Notes under the pieces: model-generated
Database searches by the model: none
What the model was told of the DNA's origin: nothing
What the model saw: only the letters and a program-made list of their open reading frames with translations
Source of the DNA: Escherichia coli
Lineage (GTDB): Bacteria; Pseudomonadota; Gammaproteobacteria; Enterobacterales; Enterobacteriaceae
Assembly (NCBI RefSeq): GCF_017348835.2
Contig: NZ_CP071375.1
Length of the DNA stretch: 64,000 nt
Direction: 5' to 3' (one strand)
Shown: positions 8,435 to 28,320 of the stretch, piece by piece
Layout of the letters: each line of letters starts with the position of its first letter
Position numbering within the stretch: the first letter of the stretch is position 1
Made by a program: the position numbers and the translations under genes

Positions 8435-10330
<1,896 letters not shown>

Positions 10331-10393: not shown

Positions 10394-12535
10394 TCAAAAT
10401 TCCATTTTCACCGTGAATTGCACTTCACGCGGATCGCCAATCTGATTCCCCAGATTATTTGTGGCGATGGAAGAGGTGTAATACGTTTTATCAAACAGGT
10501 TTTTGACGTTTAATTGCAGTGTGACCGGATACTGCAATTTCATTTTGTATGCGGCGAAGGCATCGGCAACGAAATAGCCTGGCAGATAATAGTCAGCCCC
10601 ATTGGTTGCCGAACGACGGCTTACGCCATGTCCACCACCGCCAAACGTCAGTGTGTTATTGCCTGGCATGTTATGAATGTCATAGGTCAGGAATAGCGAA
10701 CCGGTATGACGAGGAACATTCGGCAATGGTTTCCCTGCATAATCAGGATCTTCCAGAACCTTAGCATCGGTATAGCCGTAGCTGGCAATGATATTAATGT
10801 TTTCAGTTAATGCTCCCGCAAGGTCGACTTCTACCCCTCTTGAACGAACGCGGCCTGCCGTTTTGGCGATGGTTTCATCACCAATACTTTCGGTATACAA
10901 CACGTTACGTTTATGGATATCAAACAGCGCAATATCTGCGGTTATACCATCGAACAGCTCGAATTTTGCCCCGACTTCGTAAGCATTAGATGATTCCGGT
11001 GGAAGATCTCCGATGTAGCTGGCAATTGACGATTGCGGCATAAATGTTTGCGAATAATTAGCAAATAAGGATACCGATGGCGTCAGTTTGTAGACTAACC
11101 CCAGTTTGGGCGTCCATTGTTCATCGCGGCTGTCAGTATTGACATTAAAAGGACGGCCTTTACCCGCATACTGCGTGTAATACTGATAGCGGATCCCGGC
11201 GACGGCAATCCAGTTATCGGTCAGATAGAGCGCGTCCTGTGCATAAGCTGAGTAGCTCTCCTGTTTGATCGTCTGATCACTGTCCGACGCCGAAACCGTT
11301 GTGCATTTGCTGGTATTGCCATAAACGGGGTTGTAGATATTGAAATCTTTAGCGTTTTTACAGCGAATCATATCTGTGCGCAGAAGATCATAATATTCAT
11401 ATGACACCCCACCCAGAATCTCATTATAGAACCCAGCAATATCAACATTCCCTTGCAGATCCGCACGAGTAGAATGCATACGCTGGGTAGATCCCTGAGT
11501 TGCATCAACACGCCGTGTCAGCGTTCCTGTCGTTGCATCATACGCGGTAACGCGAGCCTGATTGTCGCTGTATTTATCCTGGCTGTAGCTGTAATCAAAG
11601 CGCGCTGTCCACTGGCTATTGAGATGATATTCTGCGTTGAGTTGCGCCAGATCGGACTGACCATCTGTAATATTAAACGGTTCGTCAAAACGTATTTTTC
11701 GATCAACGTTTACGGGCTGTTTCGTCGTAAGGTCGAAAATCGTTCCACGATCGAACGGAGTTTTATAGTCCCGATGGGAATAGAGCATGGTTACTGTTGC
11801 ATTATCACCAAACCAGGTGAGTGACGGGGCAATAAATGTACTGCGCTCTTTACCGAAGTTTCGCCAGTAATCTTCATCCTGCACTTCCCCCGTCAGGCGG
11901 TATGTCAGCTGAGTGCCTTCAATGGGACCTGTGATATCAAGTTGCCCAGTGCCTCCGCCAAAACTGGAGGACGTGGCTGAGACAGAACCATGGAATGTTT
12001 TTTCCGGGCGCTTGGTCACGACGTTAATCAATCCACCAGGATCGAGAATGCCATACAGCGTGGAGGCCGGACCTTTTAGCACTTCCACACGTTCTGTGGC
12101 GGCGTTGAAACTGCGAGGAAGTACAGTTCGCAGACCGTTGGTCATGATGGAGCCATCCCGGTTAGCACCAAACCCACGACGTACAAAGGCGTCCTGAGTT
12201 CCGCCTAATGTATTGGTCTGTACCACGTTACTGACGTTATAAAGCGCTTCATCCAGCGTCGTTGCATTCTGATTTTCCAGAACCTGATCGCTAACCGTAT
12301 TGACCACCTGCGGAATATCCAGCATCGGCATATCGGTTAATGTCGCCGTGGAAGTGCTCAGAGGTTGATAACCATCGGTCGCCTCAGTTGCGGTATTTGC
12401 ATCCGCTGTAACAGTGATTGTTTCGCCATCTTTGGTCGTTGCAGTGTCGGTTGCATGAATCATTGGTGCTGCAAAGAGCAGTGAAAAGAGCGCCCGACCT
12501 TTGATTCCTGAGAATGAAGGTGTGAACTTAGCCAT
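10394..12535 (-). CDS. TonB-dependent outer-membrane siderophore/iron receptor (accessory, not in K-12 at this site)
   Basis: 713 aa; signal peptide, TonB-box-like ETITVTA, plug-domain motifs, C-terminal aromatic residue (..KMEF); similarity to fitA is from memory only. Confidence 0.85.
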   Translation of the reverse strand: MAKFTPSFSGIKGRALFSLLFAAPMIHATDTATTKDGETITVTADANTATEATDGYQPLSTSTATLTDMPMLDIPQVVNTVSDQVLENQNATTLDEALYNVSNVVQTNTLGGTQDAFVRRGFGANRDGSIMTNGLRTVLPRSFNAATERVEVLKGPASTLYGILDPGGLINVVTKRPEKTFHGSVSATSSSFGGGTGQLDITGPIEGTQLTYRLTGEVQDEDYWRNFGKERSTFIAPSLTWFGDNATVTMLYSHRDYKTPFDRGTIFDLTTKQPVNVDRKIRFDEPFNITDGQSDLAQLNAEYHLNSQWTARFDYSYSQDKYSDNQARVTAYDATTGTLTRRVDATQGSTQRMHSTRADLQGNVDIAGFYNEILGGVSYEYYDLLRTDMIRCKNAKDFNIYNPVYGNTSKCTTVSASDSDQTIKQESYSAYAQDALYLTDNWIAVAGIRYQYYTQYAGKGRPFNVNTDSRDEQWTPKLGLVYKLTPSVSLFANYSQTFMPQSSIASYIGDLPPESSNAYEVGAKFELFDGITADIALFDIHKRNVLYTESIGDETIAKTAGRVRSRGVEVDLAGALTENINIIASYGYTDAKVLEDPDYAGKPLPNVPRHTGSLFLTYDIHNMPGNNTLTFGGGGHGVSRRSATNGADYYLPGYFVADAFAAYKMKLQYPVTLQLNVKNLFDKTYYTSSIATNNLGNQIGDPREVQFTVKMEF

Positions 12536-12908
12536 TTAGTCTGTTATCCCAAAAACTCACGGATTGTCGTGAGTGAAAATTGTTTCTTGTTGCTCACTAA
12601 GCACTATCCGTTTGTTATTTCACCATCGGATATGTAATTGAGAATCATTCAACCATGCGCTGATGTAGTAGTAAATGAGAAATAACAAAAAATTGCTACA
12701 TGTGTTTTTATGAGAGGTTAATGCAATTCAATTGATGGTAATTTATTAATATTTAATGGTTTTATTTTTATCTTTAAAAATATTTCACCTATTATTTACC
12801 TTGTTTTTGTATGGCTTTTAACTTCTTGACTACTACATTTTGTGGCGTCAAACTCTCAAAGGAGAATGAGTTTTATTTTTGTTTGTCTTTGATTAAGTTG
12901 GCGTACAC
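12536..12908. promoter_or_regulatory. AT-rich divergent promoter region for receptor gene and ABC operon, with Fur-box-like element near 12634-12652
   Basis: About 370 bp AT-rich intergenic between divergent starts; gagaatcattc resembles half of the Fur consensus GATAATGATAATCATTATC. Confidence 0.35.
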
Positions 12909-13718
12909 GTGGCACATAACGCAAAAGGGCAGGGGCTGATCCTCGACAATGTTTCTGCCGGGTATCACAAGAAAATCATTGTTGATGGTGTTTCTTTCTC
13001 CGTTCCCACAGAAAAAATGACCGTTCTGGTTGGGGCAAACGGCTGTGGAAAGTCGACGTTGCTCAGCACCATTGCACGTATCTTGCAACCCATGGGCGGC
13101 TCAATATTGCTGGATGGTAAAGCGATTCACGAGCAACCAACGAAAGCGTTATCCCGTAGACTTGGGATCTTGCCGCAGTCGCCATTATTGCCGGAGGGCT
13201 TAATCGTTTATGAACTGGTGTCGCGTGGGCGTTTTCCCTGGCAGAATTTCATTCGTCAATGGAGCGACGCCGACGAGCAGGCGGTAGAAGAGGCTCTGAA
13301 ATTAACCGGTACGCAGGAGTTTGCTCATTTACCTGTTGAAAAACTCTCTGGTGGGCAGCGCCAGCGTTGCTGGATTGCGATGGTGTTGGCGCAAAAGACG
13401 CCTTATATCCTACTGGATGAACCCACAACCTGGCTTGATTTACGTTATCAGGTTGAAATTCTTGAGTTATTACATGATTTAACGCGTCATCACGGGCGTA
13501 CAGTCGTCGTGGTGTTGCATGATCTGAATTTTGCCGTCAATTATGGTGATACGTTGATATTTTTACGCCAGGGGAAAGTGGTGCGTGTGTTGAATGAGGG
13601 GGAGCATTGCACGCCTGAGCTGGTAAAAGCTGTCTTTGACGTTGATGTTCACGCATCAATAAATCCTCTGTCGGGAAAGCCGTTCTTCATGCCGTTTCGT
13701 GGTGTAGAAAAAGTATGA
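12909..13718 (+). CDS. Iron-siderophore ABC transporter ATP-binding protein (FecE/FepC-like)
   Basis: Walker A GANGCGKST, signature LSGGQRQR, Walker B ILLDEPT; start codon appears to be GTG. Confidence 0.85.
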   Translation: MAHNAKGQGLILDNVSAGYHKKIIVDGVSFSVPTEKMTVLVGANGCGKSTLLSTIARILQPMGGSILLDGKAIHEQPTKALSRRLGILPQSPLLPEGLIVYELVSRGRFPWQNFIRQWSDADEQAVEEALKLTGTQEFAHLPVEKLSGGQRQRCWIAMVLAQKTPYILLDEPTTWLDLRYQVEILELLHDLTRHHGRTVVVVLHDLNFAVNYGDTLIFLRQGKVVRVLNEGEHCTPELVKAVFDVDVHASINPLSGKPFFMPFRGVEKV

Positions 13719-14698
13719 TGCGCACAGGGCTGGTTACTGTAATTTTCCTCGCCTTACTGCTGGTGGGATGCGTGGTATATCCAGGGATTGGTGCCCGATT
13801 TATTGCACCACAAACGGTGTTGCAGGCATTTCTTCATTTTGAACCGCAAAACTTCGATCACAACGTAATTGTAAGACTCCGTTTGCCGCGTTTAGCGGCA
13901 GCATTGCTTACCGGTGCTTCTCTTGGAGTTGCTGGTGCTTTGTTGCAGGCTGTCATTCGTAACCCATTGGGGGAGCCACATATTTTAGGCTTAAATGCCG
14001 GAGCCGCTCTTGCTGTCGTTGCTGCCAGTGCGCTTGGGCTGGCCTTTCCGGTTGGACGCCCACTGCTGGCATCTACGGGCGGCGCGTTATTGTTCCTGTT
14101 GATATTGCTGCTTTCCTCCGCAGGGCGTTCAGGGTTAACGCCAATGAAAGTTACTTTATGCGGCGTGGCGCTATCGGCGTTCGTGTCCTCAATAACGGCT
14201 GCAATCCTGATTCTTGACGAACAAACACTGCTGGCGATGCGGACATGGCTAGCAGGTGATTTAGCGGGGCAGGATTGGGTGACGCTGGGTACGTCCGCCT
14301 GGTTTTCTCTGGGGGGATTTGTGTTAGCCATTTACCTTGCGCCCTCTCTTAACATGTTGGCACTGGGTGATCGCATGGCGCAGGGGCTGGGCGTCTCGGT
14401 ACTCCGCACGCGAACATTCACCCTGCTTGCGATCGCGTTGCTCTGTGGCGCAGCCGTATCGATTGCTGGCCCCATTGGTTTTGTCGGTCTGCTAGTACCG
14501 CAGATTGTCAGGCGTCTGGTATCAGCGGATCTGCGCGTTCTGCTCCCTCTTTCAGCTTGTGTCGGCGCGCTTTTGTTATTACTGGCAGATATTATTGCTC
14601 GGACGCTCTTCACGCCCCATGAGTTAGCGACCGGTGTCATGACGGCGTTAGTTGGTGCGCCTGTTTTTGTCATTATGGCGACGAGGATGTTCAAATGA
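13715..14698 (+). CDS. Iron-siderophore ABC transporter permease (FecCD family)
   Basis: 327 aa polytopic membrane protein; start overlaps ATPase stop. Confidence 0.8.
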   Translation: MMRTGLVTVIFLALLLVGCVVYPGIGARFIAPQTVLQAFLHFEPQNFDHNVIVRLRLPRLAAALLTGASLGVAGALLQAVIRNPLGEPHILGLNAGAALAVVAASALGLAFPVGRPLLASTGGALLFLLILLLSSAGRSGLTPMKVTLCGVALSAFVSSITAAILILDEQTLLAMRTWLAGDLAGQDWVTLGTSAWFSLGGFVLAIYLAPSLNMLALGDRMAQGLGVSVLRTRTFTLLAIALLCGAAVSIAGPIGFVGLLVPQIVRRLVSADLRVLLPLSACVGALLLLLADIIARTLFTPHELATGVMTALVGAPVFVIMATRMFK

Positions 14699-15744
14699 GT
14701 CGGATAATGAACGTCGGGCTACGCCCACTACGTGTTGGTAAGTTTTCGACACTGGTACGCCCTAAAAATCTGGTGTTGCTTGGTGGGCTGTTTCTGTTTG
14801 CGGTTGGAATACTGATATTCGGTCTGATGCATGGTTCTTTTTCTGTCCCGGCATCGGAAGTAGGACGAGCGTTGTTTGCTCCAGAAAACGTAAGCACAGA
14901 CGCACGTTATATTGTGCAGGATATTCGCTTGCCGAGAGTCATCATGGCATTGCTATGCGGAGCCATGTTAGGTATGGCGGGGGCCGCGATGCAATCCATT
15001 GCGCGTAACGGCCTTGCCGATCCTGGTTTAATCGGCGTCAAAGAAGGATGTAGCGTGGCGGTGCTGTGGCTGATTATCCAGTTTCCAATGCTGGGAATGT
15101 TCTGGCGTCCAGTGGCTGGTCTTGCTGGTGGCTTGTTGGTGGCTTTAATCGTGATTTTTTGTGCACGCGATATTTCCCGCCCGCGATTTGTTCTGATTGG
15201 TATTGGTGTTTCCTGGTTTTTCGCCGCCGGTATCGGTGTATTTATGACCACTGCAGATGTTCGAGATGTACAAACTGCATTGATGTGGTTATCGGGAAGC
15301 CTGCATGCAGCAAACTGGATGTTAGTCGGTATTTCAGCCTGTTGGATGTTGCCAGCCGCTCTTTTATTGCTGTTCACCGCCAGGACGGCGGATATCGCTC
15401 TGCTTGGTCATCAGGTTGCAACCGGGTTAGGGGTGAATAGTTCTCGTCTGGCGTTGTTACGTGTCGCCGCACCAATAATCCTGACAGCCGTCTGCGTTTC
15501 GTGTGTTGGTAACATCGGTTTTGTCGGATTGATAGCACCCCATATATCACGTTTTATTCTACGTGGCGGGCAGACGACATTACTGCTGGGGAGCGCGGTA
15601 TCGGGGGCGTTGTTAGTTATTCTGGCGGATAGCATTGGTCGTTTGGCTTTTTTGCCTTTGCAACTGCCTGCAGGAATCATTATCTCACTGATTGGTGGGC
15701 CATTTTTTTTGCTACTGCTCTGGCAGCGCAGGAACAGTTTTTAA
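14695..15744 (+). CDS. Iron-siderophore ABC transporter permease (FecCD family), second copy
   Basis: 349 aa polytopic membrane protein; start overlaps preceding stop. Confidence 0.8.
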   Translation: MSRIMNVGLRPLRVGKFSTLVRPKNLVLLGGLFLFAVGILIFGLMHGSFSVPASEVGRALFAPENVSTDARYIVQDIRLPRVIMALLCGAMLGMAGAAMQSIARNGLADPGLIGVKEGCSVAVLWLIIQFPMLGMFWRPVAGLAGGLLVALIVIFCARDISRPRFVLIGIGVSWFFAAGIGVFMTTADVRDVQTALMWLSGSLHAANWMLVGISACWMLPAALLLLFTARTADIALLGHQVATGLGVNSSRLALLRVAAPIILTAVCVSCVGNIGFVGLIAPHISRFILRGGQTTLLLGSAVSGALLVILADSIGRLAFLPLQLPAGIIISLIGGPFFLLLLWQRRNSF

Positions 15745-15754
15745 TGGGAGTTAT

Positions 15755-16702
15755 ATGCGTTTATTTTTTTCTCTGCTGATACTGTTGTCATTCTTTGCCC
15801 GCGCGACAGAACCTGTTCAGGTCTTTACTGATGATTTAGGGCGCAAAGTCACTGTTCCTGCTCATCCAAAGAGAATTGTCTCTTTACACGATCTTGATAT
15901 CACTATTCCTCTGATTGAGCTCGGTGTACCTCCTGTCGCCAGCCACGGGCGAACCCGGCCTGACGGTAGCCATTTCATTCGATCAGGCGCGTTATTGACA
16001 GGTGTCGACTTTGATAATTCATCGATCGCTTTTATTGGCACCGCTGATATTGATATTGAAGCGATTGTGGCGGCAAAGCCTGATCTGATTATCACAGAAC
16101 CGACCCGTAATACGCCCATTGAACAACTGGAAAAAATTGCGCCCACGGTGAGCATTGATCATCTCAAAGGAGGCGCGCCAGAAATCTACCGCAAGCTGGC
16201 AGAACTGACAGGAACGCAGTCGCAGCTGGCGATACTTGAACGCCGCTATCAGGCACAAATCAATGCGCTGAAGGCGACGCTGGACAGCCAAAAAATAACG
16301 GTATCGGTGATTCAGGCAAATCAGGGAAAAATTAATGTGATGCATAGCTATCATTCGCTGGGGCGGGTATTACGCGATGCTGGTTTTCGCTTTCCGCCGC
16401 TGATTGAGAGCATTCCTGAAGGTGGGCGAATGGATGTGAGCGCGGAGCGTTTACCTGAACTGGATGCCGATTTTGTTTTTGCAACCTGGCGCGGTGACAC
16501 CGGTGGTAAACCTCAGGATGAGCTGGCAGCAATGGAAAAAGTCATGCCGGGATGGTGTCAGTTTCTGACTGCCTGTCGTTCCGGGCGTTATGTGCTGATT
16601 TCTCGTGAAGAGGCAATTTCTAACTCCTTTGCATCTCTGGGGCTGATGGCTGCGCAGATACAATCACAAATTGCGGGACGACCTCTACCGGAGGCTAAAT
16701 GA
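15755..16702 (+). CDS. Periplasmic iron-siderophore binding protein (cluster A substrate-binding protein)
   Basis: 315 aa from MRLFFSLLILLSFFARA (signal peptide), GGAG-like RBS upstream; ORF-track start is an upstream extension. Confidence 0.75.
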   Translation: MRLFFSLLILLSFFARATEPVQVFTDDLGRKVTVPAHPKRIVSLHDLDITIPLIELGVPPVASHGRTRPDGSHFIRSGALLTGVDFDNSSIAFIGTADIDIEAIVAAKPDLIITEPTRNTPIEQLEKIAPTVSIDHLKGGAPEIYRKLAELTGTQSQLAILERRYQAQINALKATLDSQKITVSVIQANQGKINVMHSYHSLGRVLRDAGFRFPPLIESIPEGGRMDVSAERLPELDADFVFATWRGDTGGKPQDELAAMEKVMPGWCQFLTACRSGRYVLISREEAISNSFASLGLMAAQIQSQIAGRPLPEAK

Positions 16703-17586
16703 TCCAGAAAGACAAAACGCGGGTTGATATTTATGGTGAGCGTTTTCGCACTCGCGCGAGTCAGTTAACGCCTGGGTTAAGAGCTGTCGCAAGCTACATT
16801 AATGAGCATCGTGAAGTGGTACTCGAGCAAACGGCGATGGAAATTGCGGCCACGTTGAACACTTCCGATGCCACAGTTATCAGGGCTATACAGGCCCTGG
16901 GGTTTGCCGGGCTGCGTGATCTGAAACGCACTCTGGAACAGTGGCTTGGTCCAGCCCTTAGTTCCAGCGAAAAGATGTCTACGACGGTGAGTAACTTGAC
17001 GAGCGATGTTAACACCGCAATCGACTTTGTTCTTGAAGGGCATTTGTATACCTGTAATGTCCTGTCAGAGCCTGAAAACCGCCACGCGCTTGCGCAAGCT
17101 GTAGCGTTGTTGGTACAGGCACGGCAAGTCGCAATTTTTGGCATTGGCGCTTCGGGTATTCTGGCGGACTATACCGCACGACTATTCAACCGCATAGGTT
17201 TGCCTGCCACGGCACTAAACCGTACGGGTATTGGCCTTGCCGAGCAACTGATCGCGCTTCAACGTGGCGATGTTCTGATCATGATGGCGCAAAAATCTGC
17301 GCACCGGGAAGGACTGACAACGCTGCGTGAAGCGAGACGGCTGGGGATCCCTGTTATTTTGCTGACAAACGCGCTGGATTCACGTTTTAGCAAAGACGCC
17401 AGTATCGTGATTCATGTTCCGCGCGGGGATGAAAAGGGGAAAACGCCACTACATGGTACGGTATTGTTGTGCCTGGAAATGATTGTTTGGTCGGTGGCTT
17501 CCGCGATGCCGCAGCGTGCGGTTAAAACCATTAAGCGAATTAACGATTTCCATCGGGGTTTGAAAACAGGAAGAAAGAATGGCTAA
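16699..17586 (+). CDS. RpiR/MurR-family transcriptional regulator (HTH_6 + SIS domain)
   Basis: 295 aa; N-terminal HTH, central SIS-type fold (VAIFGIGASG); start overlaps stop of binding-protein gene. Confidence 0.75.
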   Translation: MIQKDKTRVDIYGERFRTRASQLTPGLRAVASYINEHREVVLEQTAMEIAATLNTSDATVIRAIQALGFAGLRDLKRTLEQWLGPALSSSEKMSTTVSNLTSDVNTAIDFVLEGHLYTCNVLSEPENRHALAQAVALLVQARQVAIFGIGASGILADYTARLFNRIGLPATALNRTGIGLAEQLIALQRGDVLIMMAQKSAHREGLTTLREARRLGIPVILLTNALDSRFSKDASIVIHVPRGDEKGKTPLHGTVLLCLEMIVWSVASAMPQRAVKTIKRINDFHRGLKTGRKNG

Positions 17587-17629: not shown

Positions 17630-17944
17630 TTAAATCCCCGGTTGCAGAATACGGATATTCATCTCCAGCACGTCGCCTTTTACGGCTTCGCTGTACGCCT
17701 TCATGTGCGGGGTTTGCAGATGCGCTTCAAGGTGCGCGATGCTTTCCCACTGCTCAATCATCACGATAGAATCCGGTGCCATAGACTGGAAACTCACGCC
17801 AGCAGCGCAATCCACCATTGGCGCATAGCCGTGGCAACCTTCTTCTTTCAGTACGGTTGGAACGATTTTAGCAAACTGATCCAATACCGCCTGACGGTGA
17901 TGTTGACCAGGACGAGTACGGATTTCTGCGATTACGGTAAGCAT
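17630..17944 (-). CDS. ygiN: Quinol monooxygenase YgiN
   Basis: 104 aa, ABM-domain; follows mdaB as in K-12. Confidence 0.9.
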   Translation of the reverse strand: MLTVIAEIRTRPGQHHRQAVLDQFAKIVPTVLKEEGCHGYAPMVDCAAGVSFQSMAPDSIVMIEQWESIAHLEAHLQTPHMKAYSEAVKGDVLEMNIRILQPGI

Positions 17945-17974: not shown

Positions 17975-18556
17975 TTAACCAAAAATTTCCACAAGATGCT
18001 TGCGATATTCTTCAGTATAGCGGGGAACATCAGGCATTTTTATCACGTCATTAGCGATAAATGTCGGCAGCGGTTCCATACCGAGGAATTGGTTTGCTTT
18101 ATGGAACGACAGATACACACCGTCAACGCCAACGCCGTGGAAGAACTGATCTTTTTCGGTGAAGGCTTCCATTGGTGCGTTCCAGGTTAGAGAAAGCATA
18201 TATTTTTTGCCCTGTACCAGGCCGCCGGAACCGTATTTTTTCGACGGATCTTTGCGGGTACGACCATCGCTGGCATACAGAGTCCCGTGACCTTCGGTGA
18301 ATACATCATCAATGTATTTTTTCACTGTCCACGGCGCGCCCATCCACCAGCCTGGCATCTGCCAGATCACCACATCAGCCCAGAGAAAGTTTTGTACTTC
18401 CGCTTTGACATCGTAGTCGCTGTCGGCGCGAACGATGCGAACATCATGCCCGAGGTCGCGCAGTGTGCCATCCGCGACTTCGGTCAGGGTGTCGTTCAGT
18501 TGACCATTGGAGTGGGCGAATTTTTTCACGCCGTTGATAATCAGGATGTTGCTCAT
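17975..18556 (-). CDS. mdaB: NADPH:quinone oxidoreductase MdaB
   Basis: 193 aa flavodoxin-like fold protein (MSNILIINGVKKFAHSNGQLN...). Confidence 0.9.
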   Translation of the reverse strand: MSNILIINGVKKFAHSNGQLNDTLTEVADGTLRDLGHDVRIVRADSDYDVKAEVQNFLWADVVIWQMPGWWMGAPWTVKKYIDDVFTEGHGTLYASDGRTRKDPSKKYGSGGLVQGKKYMLSLTWNAPMEAFTEKDQFFHGVGVDGVYLSFHKANQFLGMEPLPTFIANDVIKMPDVPRYTEEYRKHLVEIFG

Positions 18557-18665
18557 TTTTTAACCTCAAGGTGAGACGTTTGCCAACTATAGTACGTCAC
18601 AGAGCGGTACGGTGAAATTAGCAAAATGTGCAAAGTCTTTTGCGAATTTAGCAAAAGTCTTACCC

Positions 18666-20015
18666 TTACCAGCTTACTTTCGCCTCAAATCCACCTTGTT
18701 CCGCATTCCCAAATTCAACATTCATGCCATGCAGCTTGGCGATTCGCTGGACAATCGATAGCCCAAGTCCACTGCCGGTAGCGGTTTGTCCGGGTGGGCG
18801 ATAGAAGCGTTCGCCAATTCGCGCCAGTGCCTCTGGTGTCACACCGGGGCCGTTATCCCTCACGATGAAATTATCGGCATTCAGCGTGACGTCCACCACG
18901 CTGCCCTGTGGACTGTAACGCACGGCGTTATCCAGCAAATTTCGCACCAACAAACTTAGCAATAGCGGTTGTCCGGTGCGTTTGATGCCCTGGACATTGA
19001 GTGTCAGTCGCACGTCAATTTTCGCCTGCTGCGCCGTGTGGTAAATATCCATCACCGACGATTGCAGGAGATCTTCAAGCGGGATCTCCGCGACGTCCTG
19101 AAGGTTATCCAGTGAGTCCAGCCGCGATAGCGTGAGCAGTTGATCAACCAGACGAGTAGCGCGATCGATCCCGTAATGTAATTGAAGCAGTGCTTTTTTC
19201 CGCGCCTGCGGATCATCGTCAGAGAGCTGCGCAACTTCGGTTTGCACTTTCAGCGCTGTTAACGGGCTACGTAGTTCGTGAGCTGCATCGGAGGTAAAGC
19301 GTCGTTCTCGAACCATCATCGCATGTGTGCGGGCGAACAGTTGATTTAGCGACTCAACCAGTGGTCGTACTTCGCTGGGTACGCCAGTCGCGTTTAGTGG
19401 TTTTTCCGAGTCAGGGTCACGCATACGTAGCGCCAGCGCCAGCTTGTTCAGCGGCGCGAGTTCACGACCCAGTAGTACCATCATGATGATTAACATAATC
19501 GGCAGTGCAACCAGCCACGGGATCAATTGCCCGGCAACAATCGCCAGCGCCATGTCTTCACGGTATTCCCATTCCTGACCAACAACGATGCGATATTTGC
19601 CATCAGGTGAGGTCATCCAGACAAAACGCCAGGGATCGTCTTCACCGACCAGTTGCCCGTCAGCAAAACCTTCCCGTTGATAGCTATAGGGAATATCTTC
19701 TCCGTTATCGCCATCATTAAGGACCATTCTGCCGTCGTGGGTAAAGATGGCAAAGGTCAACGCATCGTCATCAACATGACCGTGTTTTAATTTATTCGGC
19801 GTCTGTGCCATGCGATCCGCCGCGTTGATTTCGTTGAGATCGAGCGTACTTAACCGCTTGGCAAACAGCATCAGTTGGGTGTCGAACAACTCATCGACGT
19901 TATCCGTTGTTTGTTTCCAGGCGACAAAGCTGGAAAGCAGCCAGGTCACCGAGGCCAGAATTAAAAAGATTAGCGTCAGCCTGACTCGCAGACTAAGACG
20001 TTGGGTAAATTTCAT
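18666..20015 (-). CDS. qseC: Sensor histidine kinase QseC
   Basis: 449 aa, two TM segments, HAMP, H-box (AAHELRSPL), HATPase_c. Confidence 0.92.
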
Positions 20016-20671
20016 TTCTCACCTAATGTATAGCCAATACCATGCACGGTACGAATAAAATCACTACCGAGTTTGCGTCGCAGATGATGCACATGCACTT
20101 CAACGGCATTACTGGTGACCTCTTCGTCCCAGGTATACAGTTTCTCTTCAATCAGTTTGCGCGGCAGTACCCGACCAGCGTTACGCATCAGTAATTCCAG
20201 CAGGGCAAATTCTTTTGGTTTCAGTGTTAAGGGTTCGCCAGCCAGCGTGGCGATACGTTTGCCGGGGTCGAGCATGACGTTACCGTGGCGCAGCTCGTTG
20301 CTGGCCTGGCCGTTGGTTCGGCGCATCAGAGCTTCCAGCCTGGCGGCGACTTCTATCAACGCAAAAGGTTTACACAGATAATCGTCAGCTCCCAGACGCA
20401 GCCCCTCTACACGTTCCGCCAGCGCATCGCGCGCGGTCAGGATCAGTACCGGCTCACGCTGACCTTTTTCTCGCCATTCGCGCAAAATATCGCGACCATC
20501 CATGCCTGGTAAGGTTAAATCCAGGATCACCGCATCATAAGGCGCGCTATAAAGCGCCTCTTTTCCCTGACGACCTTGTGTAAACCAGTCGACGCTAAAA
20601 CCCATTTTACTAAGGCCCGTTTTGATGCCGTCGCCAATCAGCATGTCATCTTCTATCAGTAAAATTCGCAT
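20012..20671 (-). CDS. qseB: Response regulator QseB (OmpR family)
   Basis: 219 aa, receiver domain + winged-helix; stop overlaps qseC start. Confidence 0.92.
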
Positions 20672-21267: not shown

Positions 21268-21750
21268 ATGACAAACCTGACACTGGATGTAAACATTATC
21301 GATTTCCCATCAATCCCTGTGGCGATGTTGCCGCACCGCTGTAGCCCTGAGTTGCTCAACTACAGCGTGGCGAAATTTATCATGTGGCGTAAAGAGACGG
21401 GGCTTTCTCCTGTTAACCAAAGCCAGACTTTTGGCGTCGCCTGGGACGACCCTGCCACCACCGCACCGGAAGCGTTTCGCTTTGATATCTGCGGCAGCGT
21501 TAGCGAACCGATTCCCGATAATCGTTATGGTGTGAGCAATGGTGAACTTACCGGTGGACGTTATGCCGTGGCCCGCCACGTAGGCGAGCTGGATGATATT
21601 TCACACACGATATGGGGCATTATTCGCCACTGGCTGCCTGCAAGCGGCGAGAAAATGCGTAAAGCACCGATTCTGTTTCACTACACCAATCTTGCCAAAG
21701 GGGTGACAGAGCAGCGACTGGAAACGGATATTTATGTGCCGTTGGCGTGA
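21268..21750 (+). CDS. ygiV: GyrI-like small-molecule-binding protein YgiV
   Basis: 160-aa ORF, remembered YgiV sequence. Confidence 0.85.
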   Translation: MTNLTLDVNIIDFPSIPVAMLPHRCSPELLNYSVAKFIMWRKETGLSPVNQSQTFGVAWDDPATTAPEAFRFDICGSVSEPIPDNRYGVSNGELTGGRYAVARHVGELDDISHTIWGIIRHWLPASGEKMRKAPILFHYTNLAKGVTEQRLETDIYVPLA

Positions 21751-21858
21751 TGGGGTATCTTTACCGGAGTGTGAGCCAAATCACTCGCGATAAGTTTGAG
21801 CGAACAATGCCACAGGCGTATTGTTGTTGGGCTTATAATTTCTCCGGTAAGGAATACC

Positions 21859-26907: not shown

Positions 26908-28320
26908 ATGTCACTCAGTCGGCGTCAGTTCATTCAGGCATCGGGGATTGCACTTTGTGCAGGCGCTGTTCCCCTGAAGGCCAGCGCAGCCGGGCAACAG
27001 CAACCGCTACCCGTTCCGCCGCTACTTGAATCTCGCCGTGGGCAACCGCTGTTTATGACTGTACAACGTGCGCACTGGTCATTTACGCCAGGGACACGCG
27101 CGTCGGTCTGGGGAATCAATGGTCGTTACCTGGGGCCGACTATCCGCGTCTGGAAGGGCGATGATGTTAAGCTTATTTACAGCAACCGCCTGACAGAAAA
27201 TGTCTCAATGACGGTGGCCGGGCTACAGGTACCAGGCCCGCTGATGGGCGGTCCGGCACGGATGATGTCGCCAAACGCTGACTGGGCACCCGTACTGCCT
27301 ATTCGCCAGAACGCAGCTACTCTGTGGTATCACGCCAATACTCCCAACCGCACGGCTCAGCAGGTCTATAACGGCCTTGCCGGAATGTGGCTGGTGGAAG
27401 ATGAAGTCAGCAAGTCGCTGCCTATCCCCAACCATTATGGTGTGGATGATTTTCCGGTCATTATCCAGGATAAACGGCTGGATAACTTTGGTACGCCAGA
27501 ATACAACGAACCGGGAAGCGGCGGCTTTGTTGGAGATACGCTGCTGGTTAACGGTGTGCAAAGCCCGTACGTTGAAGTCTCGCGTGGCTGGGTGCGCTTG
27601 CGACTGCTGAACGCGTCGAACTCTCGTCGCTATCAACTACAGATGAGCGATGGTCGCCCGTTACATGTGATTTCTGGCGATCAGGGATTCCTGCCTGCTC
27701 CTGTATCGGTGAAGCAACTTTCGCTGGCACCGGGCGAGCGCCGCGAGATTCTGGTGGATATGAGCAACGGTGATGAAGTGTCGATCACCTGTGGTGAAGC
27801 GGCGAGCATTGTTGATCGTATTCGCGGCTTCTTTGAGCCATCCAGTATTCTGGTTTCTACCCTGGTGCTAACGCTGCGCCCAACCGGCCTTCTGCCGCTG
27901 GTCACAGACAGTCTTCCGATGCGCCTGCTGCCAACTGAAATCATGGCCGGTTCGCCGATTCGCAGTCGCGATATCAGTCTGGGTGATGACCCGGGTATTA
28001 ATGGACAGCTGTGGGACGTCAACCGTATTGATGTCACCGCGCAGCAAGGAACGTGGGAACGCTGGACGGTACGCGCGGACGAGCCGCAAGCGTTCCATAT
28101 TGAAGGCGTGATGTTCCAGATCCGTAACGTGAATGGTGCGATGCCGTTCCCGGAAGACAGAGGCTGGAAAGATACCGTTTGGGTTGACGGACAAGTGGAG
28201 CTGCTTGTTTATTTCGGTCAGCCTTCCTGGGCGCACTTCCCGTTCTACTTCAACAGTCAGACGCTGGAAATGGCGGACCGTGGCTCGATTGGGCAACTGT
28301 TAGTCAATCCGGTACCGTAA
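26908..28320 (+). CDS. ftsP: Cell division protein FtsP (SufI), multicopper-oxidase-like, Tat-exported
   Basis: 470 aa; twin-arginine signal MSLSRRQFIQASGIALCAGA. Confidence 0.93.
   Translation: MSLSRRQFIQASGIALCAGAVPLKASAAGQQQPLPVPPLLESRRGQPLFMTVQRAHWSFTPGTRASVWGINGRYLGPTIRVWKGDDVKLIYSNRLTENVSMTVAGLQVPGPLMGGPARMMSPNADWAPVLPIRQNAATLWYHANTPNRTAQQVYNGLAGMWLVEDEVSKSLPIPNHYGVDDFPVIIQDKRLDNFGTPEYNEPGSGGFVGDTLLVNGVQSPYVEVSRGWVRLRLLNASNSRRYQLQMSDGRPLHVISGDQGFLPAPVSVKQLSLAPGERREILVDMSNGDEVSITCGEAASIVDRIRGFFEPSSILVSTLVLTLRPTGLLPLVTDSLPMRLLPTEIMAGSPIRSRDISLGDDPGINGQLWDVNRIDVTAQQGTWERWTVRADEPQAFHIEGVMFQIRNVNGAMPFPEDRGWKDTVWVDGQVELLVYFGQPSWAHFPFYFNSQTLEMADRGSIGQLLVNPVP

Follow-up and report, generated by a model that had tools for sequence, protein, structure and literature searches.

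An uninterrupted, very probably ancestral qseC-mdaB spacer in an Escherichia coli strain without ygiZ, and the island found at the same site in other strains

A described locus close to the one considered here is the preB(qseC)-mdaB region of Salmonella Typhimurium. In Salmonella LT2, a spacer of 106 bp lies between preB and mdaB, and mdaB forms with ygiN an operon of its own, activated by PreA/QseB; RT-PCR showed preB and mdaB to be transcribed separately (PMC2653508). The view of preAB-mdaB-ygiN as one Salmonella operon is wrong according to the same RT-PCR results (PMC2653508), and the idea that an uninterrupted spacer might allow read-through from qseC into mdaB was therefore dropped. Moreover, mdaB is cited in PMC2989944 as a published member of the mar regulon. 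In E. coli K-12 MG1655 (locus L001), qseC ends at 11834 and mdaB starts at 12531, and the gap of 696 bp between them contains ygiZ (b3027; 11880..12212), which lies on the strand opposite to both neighbours and encodes a 110 aa inner-membrane protein of the DUF2645 family.

Other described systems concern type VI secretion (T6SS). An Hcp-linked effector-immunity architecture has been described for hcp islands elsewhere (PMC9796082; review PMC6730261), while orphan T6SS immunity genes have been described in Vibrio cholerae and noted for E. coli (review PMC6730261).

In the following, the window denotes the whole 64 kb stretch of E. coli DNA that was analysed. A preliminary description of this stretch had placed ygiZ between qseC and mdaB in K-12, a map which proves to be correct, and had noted that the gene appears to be absent from the window, where the gap was given as about 110 bp without an ORF. 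The interval is compared here with its counterparts, with regard to both the ancestral state of the site and the island that occupies it in other strains.

The spacer between mdaB and qseC

In the window, the ORF of mdaB, which encodes an NADPH:quinone oxidoreductase of 193 aa, runs along the minus strand over 17975..18556, and the name of the gene follows from the annotation of a 100%-identical match in strain PE164. The sensor histidine kinase gene qseC (449 aa; ORF and annotation of matches) lies at 18666..20015 on the same strand, with its stop codon, placed by alignment of the alleles, at 18666..18668, and is accompanied by the ORF of qseB (20012..20671, minus strand). The gap between the two genes (18557..18665) thus measures exactly 109 bp, as the estimate of about 110 bp had anticipated. 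It has no ORF of its own either: the ORFs touching it comprise only 33, 49 and 51 codons, and each of the three extends into a flanking gene. Over the 801 bp around the spacer, strain PE164 (NZ_CP114128) shows 100% identity and an O157:H7 genome 99.4%.

The apparent absence of ygiZ was borne out in the whole window. TBLASTN with the YgiZ proteins of K-12 and of an ST131 strain against the 64 kb gave only short chance matches, with a best E-value of 0.34, and no ORF matching DUF2645/YgiZ was found; nor was anything detected below E = 0.02 when the Hcp and the 236-aa protein of the island described below were added as queries. An island Hcp match at 27210..27320, with E = 0.02, was treated as chance. 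Furthermore, when the islands of K-12 and ST131 were compared with the window by BLASTN and TBLASTN, no remnant of island DNA or protein appeared, and BLASTN of the two complete intervals showed that only the 104-105 bp adjoining mdaB are shared, with 99% identity.

Alignment with the K-12 interval, which the preliminary description had proposed as a check together with TBLASTN of YgiZ, agrees with these searches. In pairwise and three-way alignments, the window and K-12 alleles run identically from mdaB through ...GCAAAAGTCT (window 18661), and their identity resumes at the qseC stop; about 590 extra bases stand in K-12 directly after that stop; the spacing of about 110 bp is thus not shared by K-12. 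The K-12 region (qseC-ygiZ-mdaB, b3026-b3028) resembles the window in its flanking genes and in the 104 bp mdaB-proximal promoter region (99% identity), and differs in an insert with a strong hairpin terminator, the opposite-strand ygiZ and about 215 bp of island-derived non-coding DNA, none of which is found in the window. The hairpin (L001 11835..11880) follows the qseC stop directly (CUAUGAGAGCCGUUAAAACGACUCUCAUAG then AUUUU; z = -4.2), standing between the convergent qseC and ygiZ, whereas folding gave no equivalent structure after qseC in the empty allele of the window. K-12-type strains thus have a strong terminator immediately behind qseC, a difference to be considered when findings on qseBC or mdaB regulation are carried over among K-12, EHEC and Salmonella.

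As regards the content of the 109 bp spacer, an Rfam search gave no family match, RNA folding an ordinary fold energy (z = -0.7), and consensus promoter and terminator scans no significant call. A block of 23 bp (GCAAAAGACTTTGCACATTTTGC in mdaB sense; 18621..18643, minus strand) corresponds to invariant columns 63-85 in an alignment of 12 sequences from 7 genera, and may be the regulatory core of the mdaB promoter. Overlapping this block, a pattern scan revealed a marbox-like match with 2 mismatches to the consensus AYNGCACNNWNNRYYAAAY (18616..18634, minus strand). As a match it is no better than chance, the window holding 14 such 2-mismatch sites versus 17 expected by chance; the site upstream of mdaB is invariant across genera in the same 12-sequence alignment, and its possible function as a marbox is suggested by its position, this conservation and the published mar regulon membership of mdaB. 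A possible -10 hexamer of the mdaB promoter, TATAGT (18586..18591, minus strand), was read directly from the sequence. Beside this putative hexamer, at 18585, the window carries a private G-to-A change (plus strand; C-to-T in mdaB sense), not present in K-12, ST131 or three other aligned empty-allele E. coli.

Several other genes nearby also differ in presence between strains. The mqsR-mqsA toxin-antitoxin pair, which in K-12 lies between ygiV and ygiS, is absent from the window, where ygiV (21268..21750) is followed by a gap of about 108 bp (21751..21858) and ygiS starts at about 21859; the two genes are equally close in ST131 and in two further strains. Between parE (8438..10330) and ygiN (17630..17944), the window holds a cluster of six genes for iron-siderophore uptake (10394..17586): one for a TonB-dependent receptor, one for an ABC ATPase, two for FecCD permeases, and one each for a substrate-binding protein and an RpiR-type regulator. 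Both K-12 and strain JE86-ST02 are without this cluster, parE directly adjoining ygiN. Strain JE86-ST02, which has the empty allele, is also without ygiS, so that ygiV is followed by a gap of 545 bp (L003 9156..9700) and then by parC, the partner gene of parE; with this absence, the presence/absence polymorphisms in the roughly 15 kb around qseBC number four.

The island at the qseC side of the site

The point at which the island sits in other strains corresponds to 18661..18665 in the window, unoccupied here; alignments place the island right after the qseC stop, and the island or ygiZ occupies this point in K-12, ST131, E. whittamii, Citrobacter werkmanii and a Pseudocitrobacter MAG. In ST131 the qseC-mdaB interval measures 1,827 bp and contains three genes, namely hcp, a gene for a 236-aa protein, and ygiZ. 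The GC content of the island is 34%, compared with 51% for the window, which marks it as AT-rich foreign DNA, acquired by horizontal transfer. The ST131 Hcp/TssD (159 aa; locus L002 12608..13087) matches TIGR03344 (5.5e-59) and PF05638 (3.5e-20), and the YgiZ proteins of both K-12 and ST131 match PF10840 (DUF2645). The APEC "hcp2B" operon (PMC5874247) was considered as a description of this island and set aside, being a different locus, with hcp2B-vgrG2-xmtU/xmtV inside T6SS2.

The 236-aa protein is a member of a small family confined to Enterobacterales, for which searches of Pfam, NCBIfam and PDB (phmmer and profile) gave nothing usable. The family has invariant WIE, GS..Q and RYNRG motifs, which are similar to the motifs ES, GLMQ and AYNxG found in lytic transglycosylases of family 1. 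An AF2 model of the protein reached a pLDDT of 77, with 1 of the 5 models confident, and it was the fold search that proved informative: the values obtained were 10.1 for Slt, 10.0 for MltE, 9.7 for the Pseudomonas T6SS muramidase effector Tse3, 8.3 for g-type lysozyme and 6.0 for Tge2. No signal peptide was seen by eye in the 236-aa protein.

The association of these genes extends beyond E. coli. A DUF2645 gene follows a gene for a 236-240 aa protein in E. coli, C. werkmanii, Pseudocitrobacter, Pectobacterium, Serratia and Chania, and the triad of hcp, effector candidate and DUF2645 stands between pagP and eamA in Pectobacterium. The triad adjoins traI and traX on the conjugative Serratia plasmid CP072744 (L088 4507..6058), and is also found in a Chania genomic island bearing an integrase and IS elements (L090 4507..6043); its presence on the plasmid and in the island marks the cassette as a mobile unit. 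At the qseC-mdaB site itself, no more than about 10 nt separate the cassette from the stop codon of qseC in each of three genera; no integrase or IS is visible there, and no convincing target-site duplications, inverted repeats or conserved island ends were found across the three. Outside E. coli, the cassettes directly after the qseC stop are those of C. werkmanii (L021 2213..4000) and the Pseudocitrobacter MAG (L079 2073..4000), whose proteins are 43-76% identical to the E. coli ones and whose ends are not conserved.

With respect to the K-12 allele, about 140 bp upstream of ygiZ (L001 12213..12353) have no counterpart in the ST131 cassette, and ygiZ shows a dS between K-12 and ST131 of 0.175, about twice that of the flanking qseC and mdaB. 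This unique segment and the doubled dS suggest that a simple deletion within the ST131 cassette does not account for the ygiZ-only allele of K-12. The same segment holds an inverted repeat, TATCAAC-N7-GTTGATA; BLASTX of the segment gave insignificant matches only (best E = 0.057), and no gene remnant is claimed for it.

Ancestral state and frequency of the empty site

For the outgroup comparison, one genome per species was scanned with MdaB, which yielded 80 Enterobacteriaceae loci. In 76 of these 80 species representatives, qseC and mdaB lie on the same strand with a gap of 102-111 bp; this set includes E. albertii, Escherichia sp. MOD1-EC7003, a divergent genome labelled E. coli and Salmonella, as well as many Citrobacter, Klebsiella, Enterobacter, Kluyvera and Leclercia. 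The remaining four comprise one gap of 144 bp, E. whittamii with ygiZ alone, and C. werkmanii and the Pseudocitrobacter MAG with a larger insert. Among the 12 sequences aligned, from 7 genera, the spacers are collinear, base by base, through the junction, the window being in line with E. albertii, another Escherichia species, Salmonella, Citrobacter, Klebsiella, Enterobacter and Kluyvera: after the stop codon the window reads TAAGGGTAAGACTTTTGC... and E. albertii TAGCGGTAAGACTTTTGC.... The filled Escherichia alleles examined keep the ancestral mdaB-side spacer with an extra TCAGA, whereas the alignments show the window to be without TCAGA or any other island-derived base of the ygiZ-bearing Escherichia alleles. 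The conservation of the spacer in outgroups and the lack of island bases indicate that the window carries the ancestral uninterrupted allele rather than a deletion scar. The interval is thus, very probably, an intact and never-interrupted ancestral spacer holding the mdaB-ygiN promoter region, in a strain without ygiZ and at a site that is filled by the island elsewhere.

The Salmonella Typhimurium preB-mdaB region resembles the window in gene order, spacer length class (106 bp) and the invariant promoter block, and differs from it in the spacer sequence outside this conserved block. The arrangement in the window matters little in itself, being an ordinary ancestral state already published for Salmonella.

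The frequency of the alleles was determined in 5,426 complete E. coli genomes, using as junction probe 130 bp across the junction of the window. The uninterrupted junction is contiguous in 824 genomes (15%), O157:H7 among them, whereas K-12 ygiZ was matched in 4,600 (85%), with 4,582 of these 4,600 matches covering at least 80% of the gene. The gene is nearly always single, with 4,621 places in the 4,600 genomes. Both hcp and the gene for the 236-aa protein are present in 1,262 of the 5,426 genomes (23%), and ygiZ stands without an adjacent toxin gene in about 3,300 (about 61%). Given that 824 and 4,600 add up to 5,424 of the 5,426 genomes, an empty junction essentially never goes together with a copy of ygiZ at another place in the genome, and the two states appear to be essentially mutually exclusive. 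The strain of the window therefore very probably has no ygiZ anywhere; its absence beyond the 64 kb is derived from these population counts and from DNA-level similarity. The backgrounds in which empty alleles of the same length are found differ in whether the neighbouring iron-uptake cluster and ygiS are present, and these alleles are 97.8% identical to the window, that is, as divergent as filled alleles (about 98%), so the polymorphism is not confined to one clone. The absence of ygiZ is ordinary, and is already visible in the public annotation of hundreds of RefSeq E. coli genomes.

The preliminary description had left it undecided whether the gene was missing or had never been acquired in this lineage. 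Its absence stands, and "never acquired" fits better than "lost". For a loss, the lineage would once have had ygiZ or the full cassette, which would then have been deleted exactly or exchanged, by homologous recombination, for the empty allele of another strain, and this course of events is made conceivable by the filled state being that of the species majority (85% of genomes with ygiZ), by flanks that are 98-99% identical between alleles, permitting allelic exchange, and by the mosaic nature of neighbouring loci. However, no island remnant of any kind is present in the window, the junction matches that of other Escherichia species and is without the TCAGA of all filled Escherichia alleles examined, and there are no convincing direct repeats at the island ends for an exact deletion to act on; a secondary loss is thus judged unlikely. 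Even after an exchange of this kind, the sequence seen today would still be that of the ancestral allele. Against "never acquired" counts that a lineage which had once borne the island and had recovered the empty allele through recombination would show this very sequence.

The relocation of ygiZ to a part of the genome outside the window might be considered, since the direct search covered 64 kb and the cassette is mobile and stands in other contexts in other genera; the near-complete partition of the 5,426 genomes between empty junction and ygiZ, together with the almost invariable single copy of the gene, makes this highly improbable. No support was found for a collapse of the ygiZ region during sequencing or assembly, an explanation which can practically be dismissed, since the same 109 bp junction recurs in 824 genomes that were finished independently and is present in other species. 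The preferred reading is therefore that of a spacer which was never interrupted.

YgiZ as a candidate immunity protein

Neither the annotation nor the papers searched assign an established function to YgiZ, and no paper linking ygiZ or DUF2645 to T6SS was found among them. The protein has a lysine-rich N-terminus, two strong hydrophobic segments and one weaker, and the dN/dS of its gene, 0.23-0.26, indicates purifying selection. Judging from gene order, conservation and topology, a role in immunity can be put forward. The cassette would be an Hcp-linked type VI effector-immunity module, in which Hcp would carry a wall-degrading toxin and the membrane protein YgiZ would protect the producer from it; K-12-type strains would keep YgiZ as an orphan immunity protein, and the strain of the window would be neither armed nor protected.

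We consider the chances to be evenly balanced that YgiZ (DUF2645) provides immunity against an undescribed Hcp-linked type VI effector with a lytic transglycosylase fold, that the site sorts E. coli into three classes, and that the strain of the window could be killed by cassette-bearing ExPEC. If so, the armed and immune class, with hcp, effector and ygiZ, would make up about 23% of genomes (ST131), the immune-only class with orphan ygiZ about 61% (K-12), and the naive class with the empty site about 15% (O157:H7, the strain of the window). The known Tge immunity proteins are periplasmic proteins or lipoproteins, and not polytopic membrane proteins, which counts against this role for YgiZ. 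As a by-product, a testable candidate function emerges for ygiZ/DUF2645, that of immunity against a wall-degrading T6SS toxin, and the three states of this one locus might serve as a simple marker to foretell which E. coli strains kill, resist or succumb to one another.

Among known systems, the Tge/Tgi pairs (Tse3-Tsi3 of P. aeruginosa, Tge2-Tgi2 of P. protegens) and the Pantoea "hcp islands" (PMC9796082) have in common with the island the succession of hcp, a gene for a small protein of lysozyme/lytic-transglycosylase fold, a fold which is predicted in the case of the island, and a small conserved gene. As in these systems, the effector candidate is without a signal peptide, and orphan copies of the last gene are found in strains without the toxin. 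The island differs from them in that no similarity in sequence could be detected between its candidate and the Tge1-3 families, and in that its putative immunity protein is a polytopic inner-membrane DUF2645 protein, as opposed to the periplasmic protein or lipoprotein of Tge/Tgi. With the orphan T6SS immunity genes, finally, ygiZ shares its intact state without an adjacent toxin gene, in about 61% of E. coli, and its apparent purifying selection (dN/dS 0.23); the published orphan immunity genes lie inside T6SS clusters, whereas ygiZ stands alone between housekeeping genes, in K-12 in a strain without T6SS.
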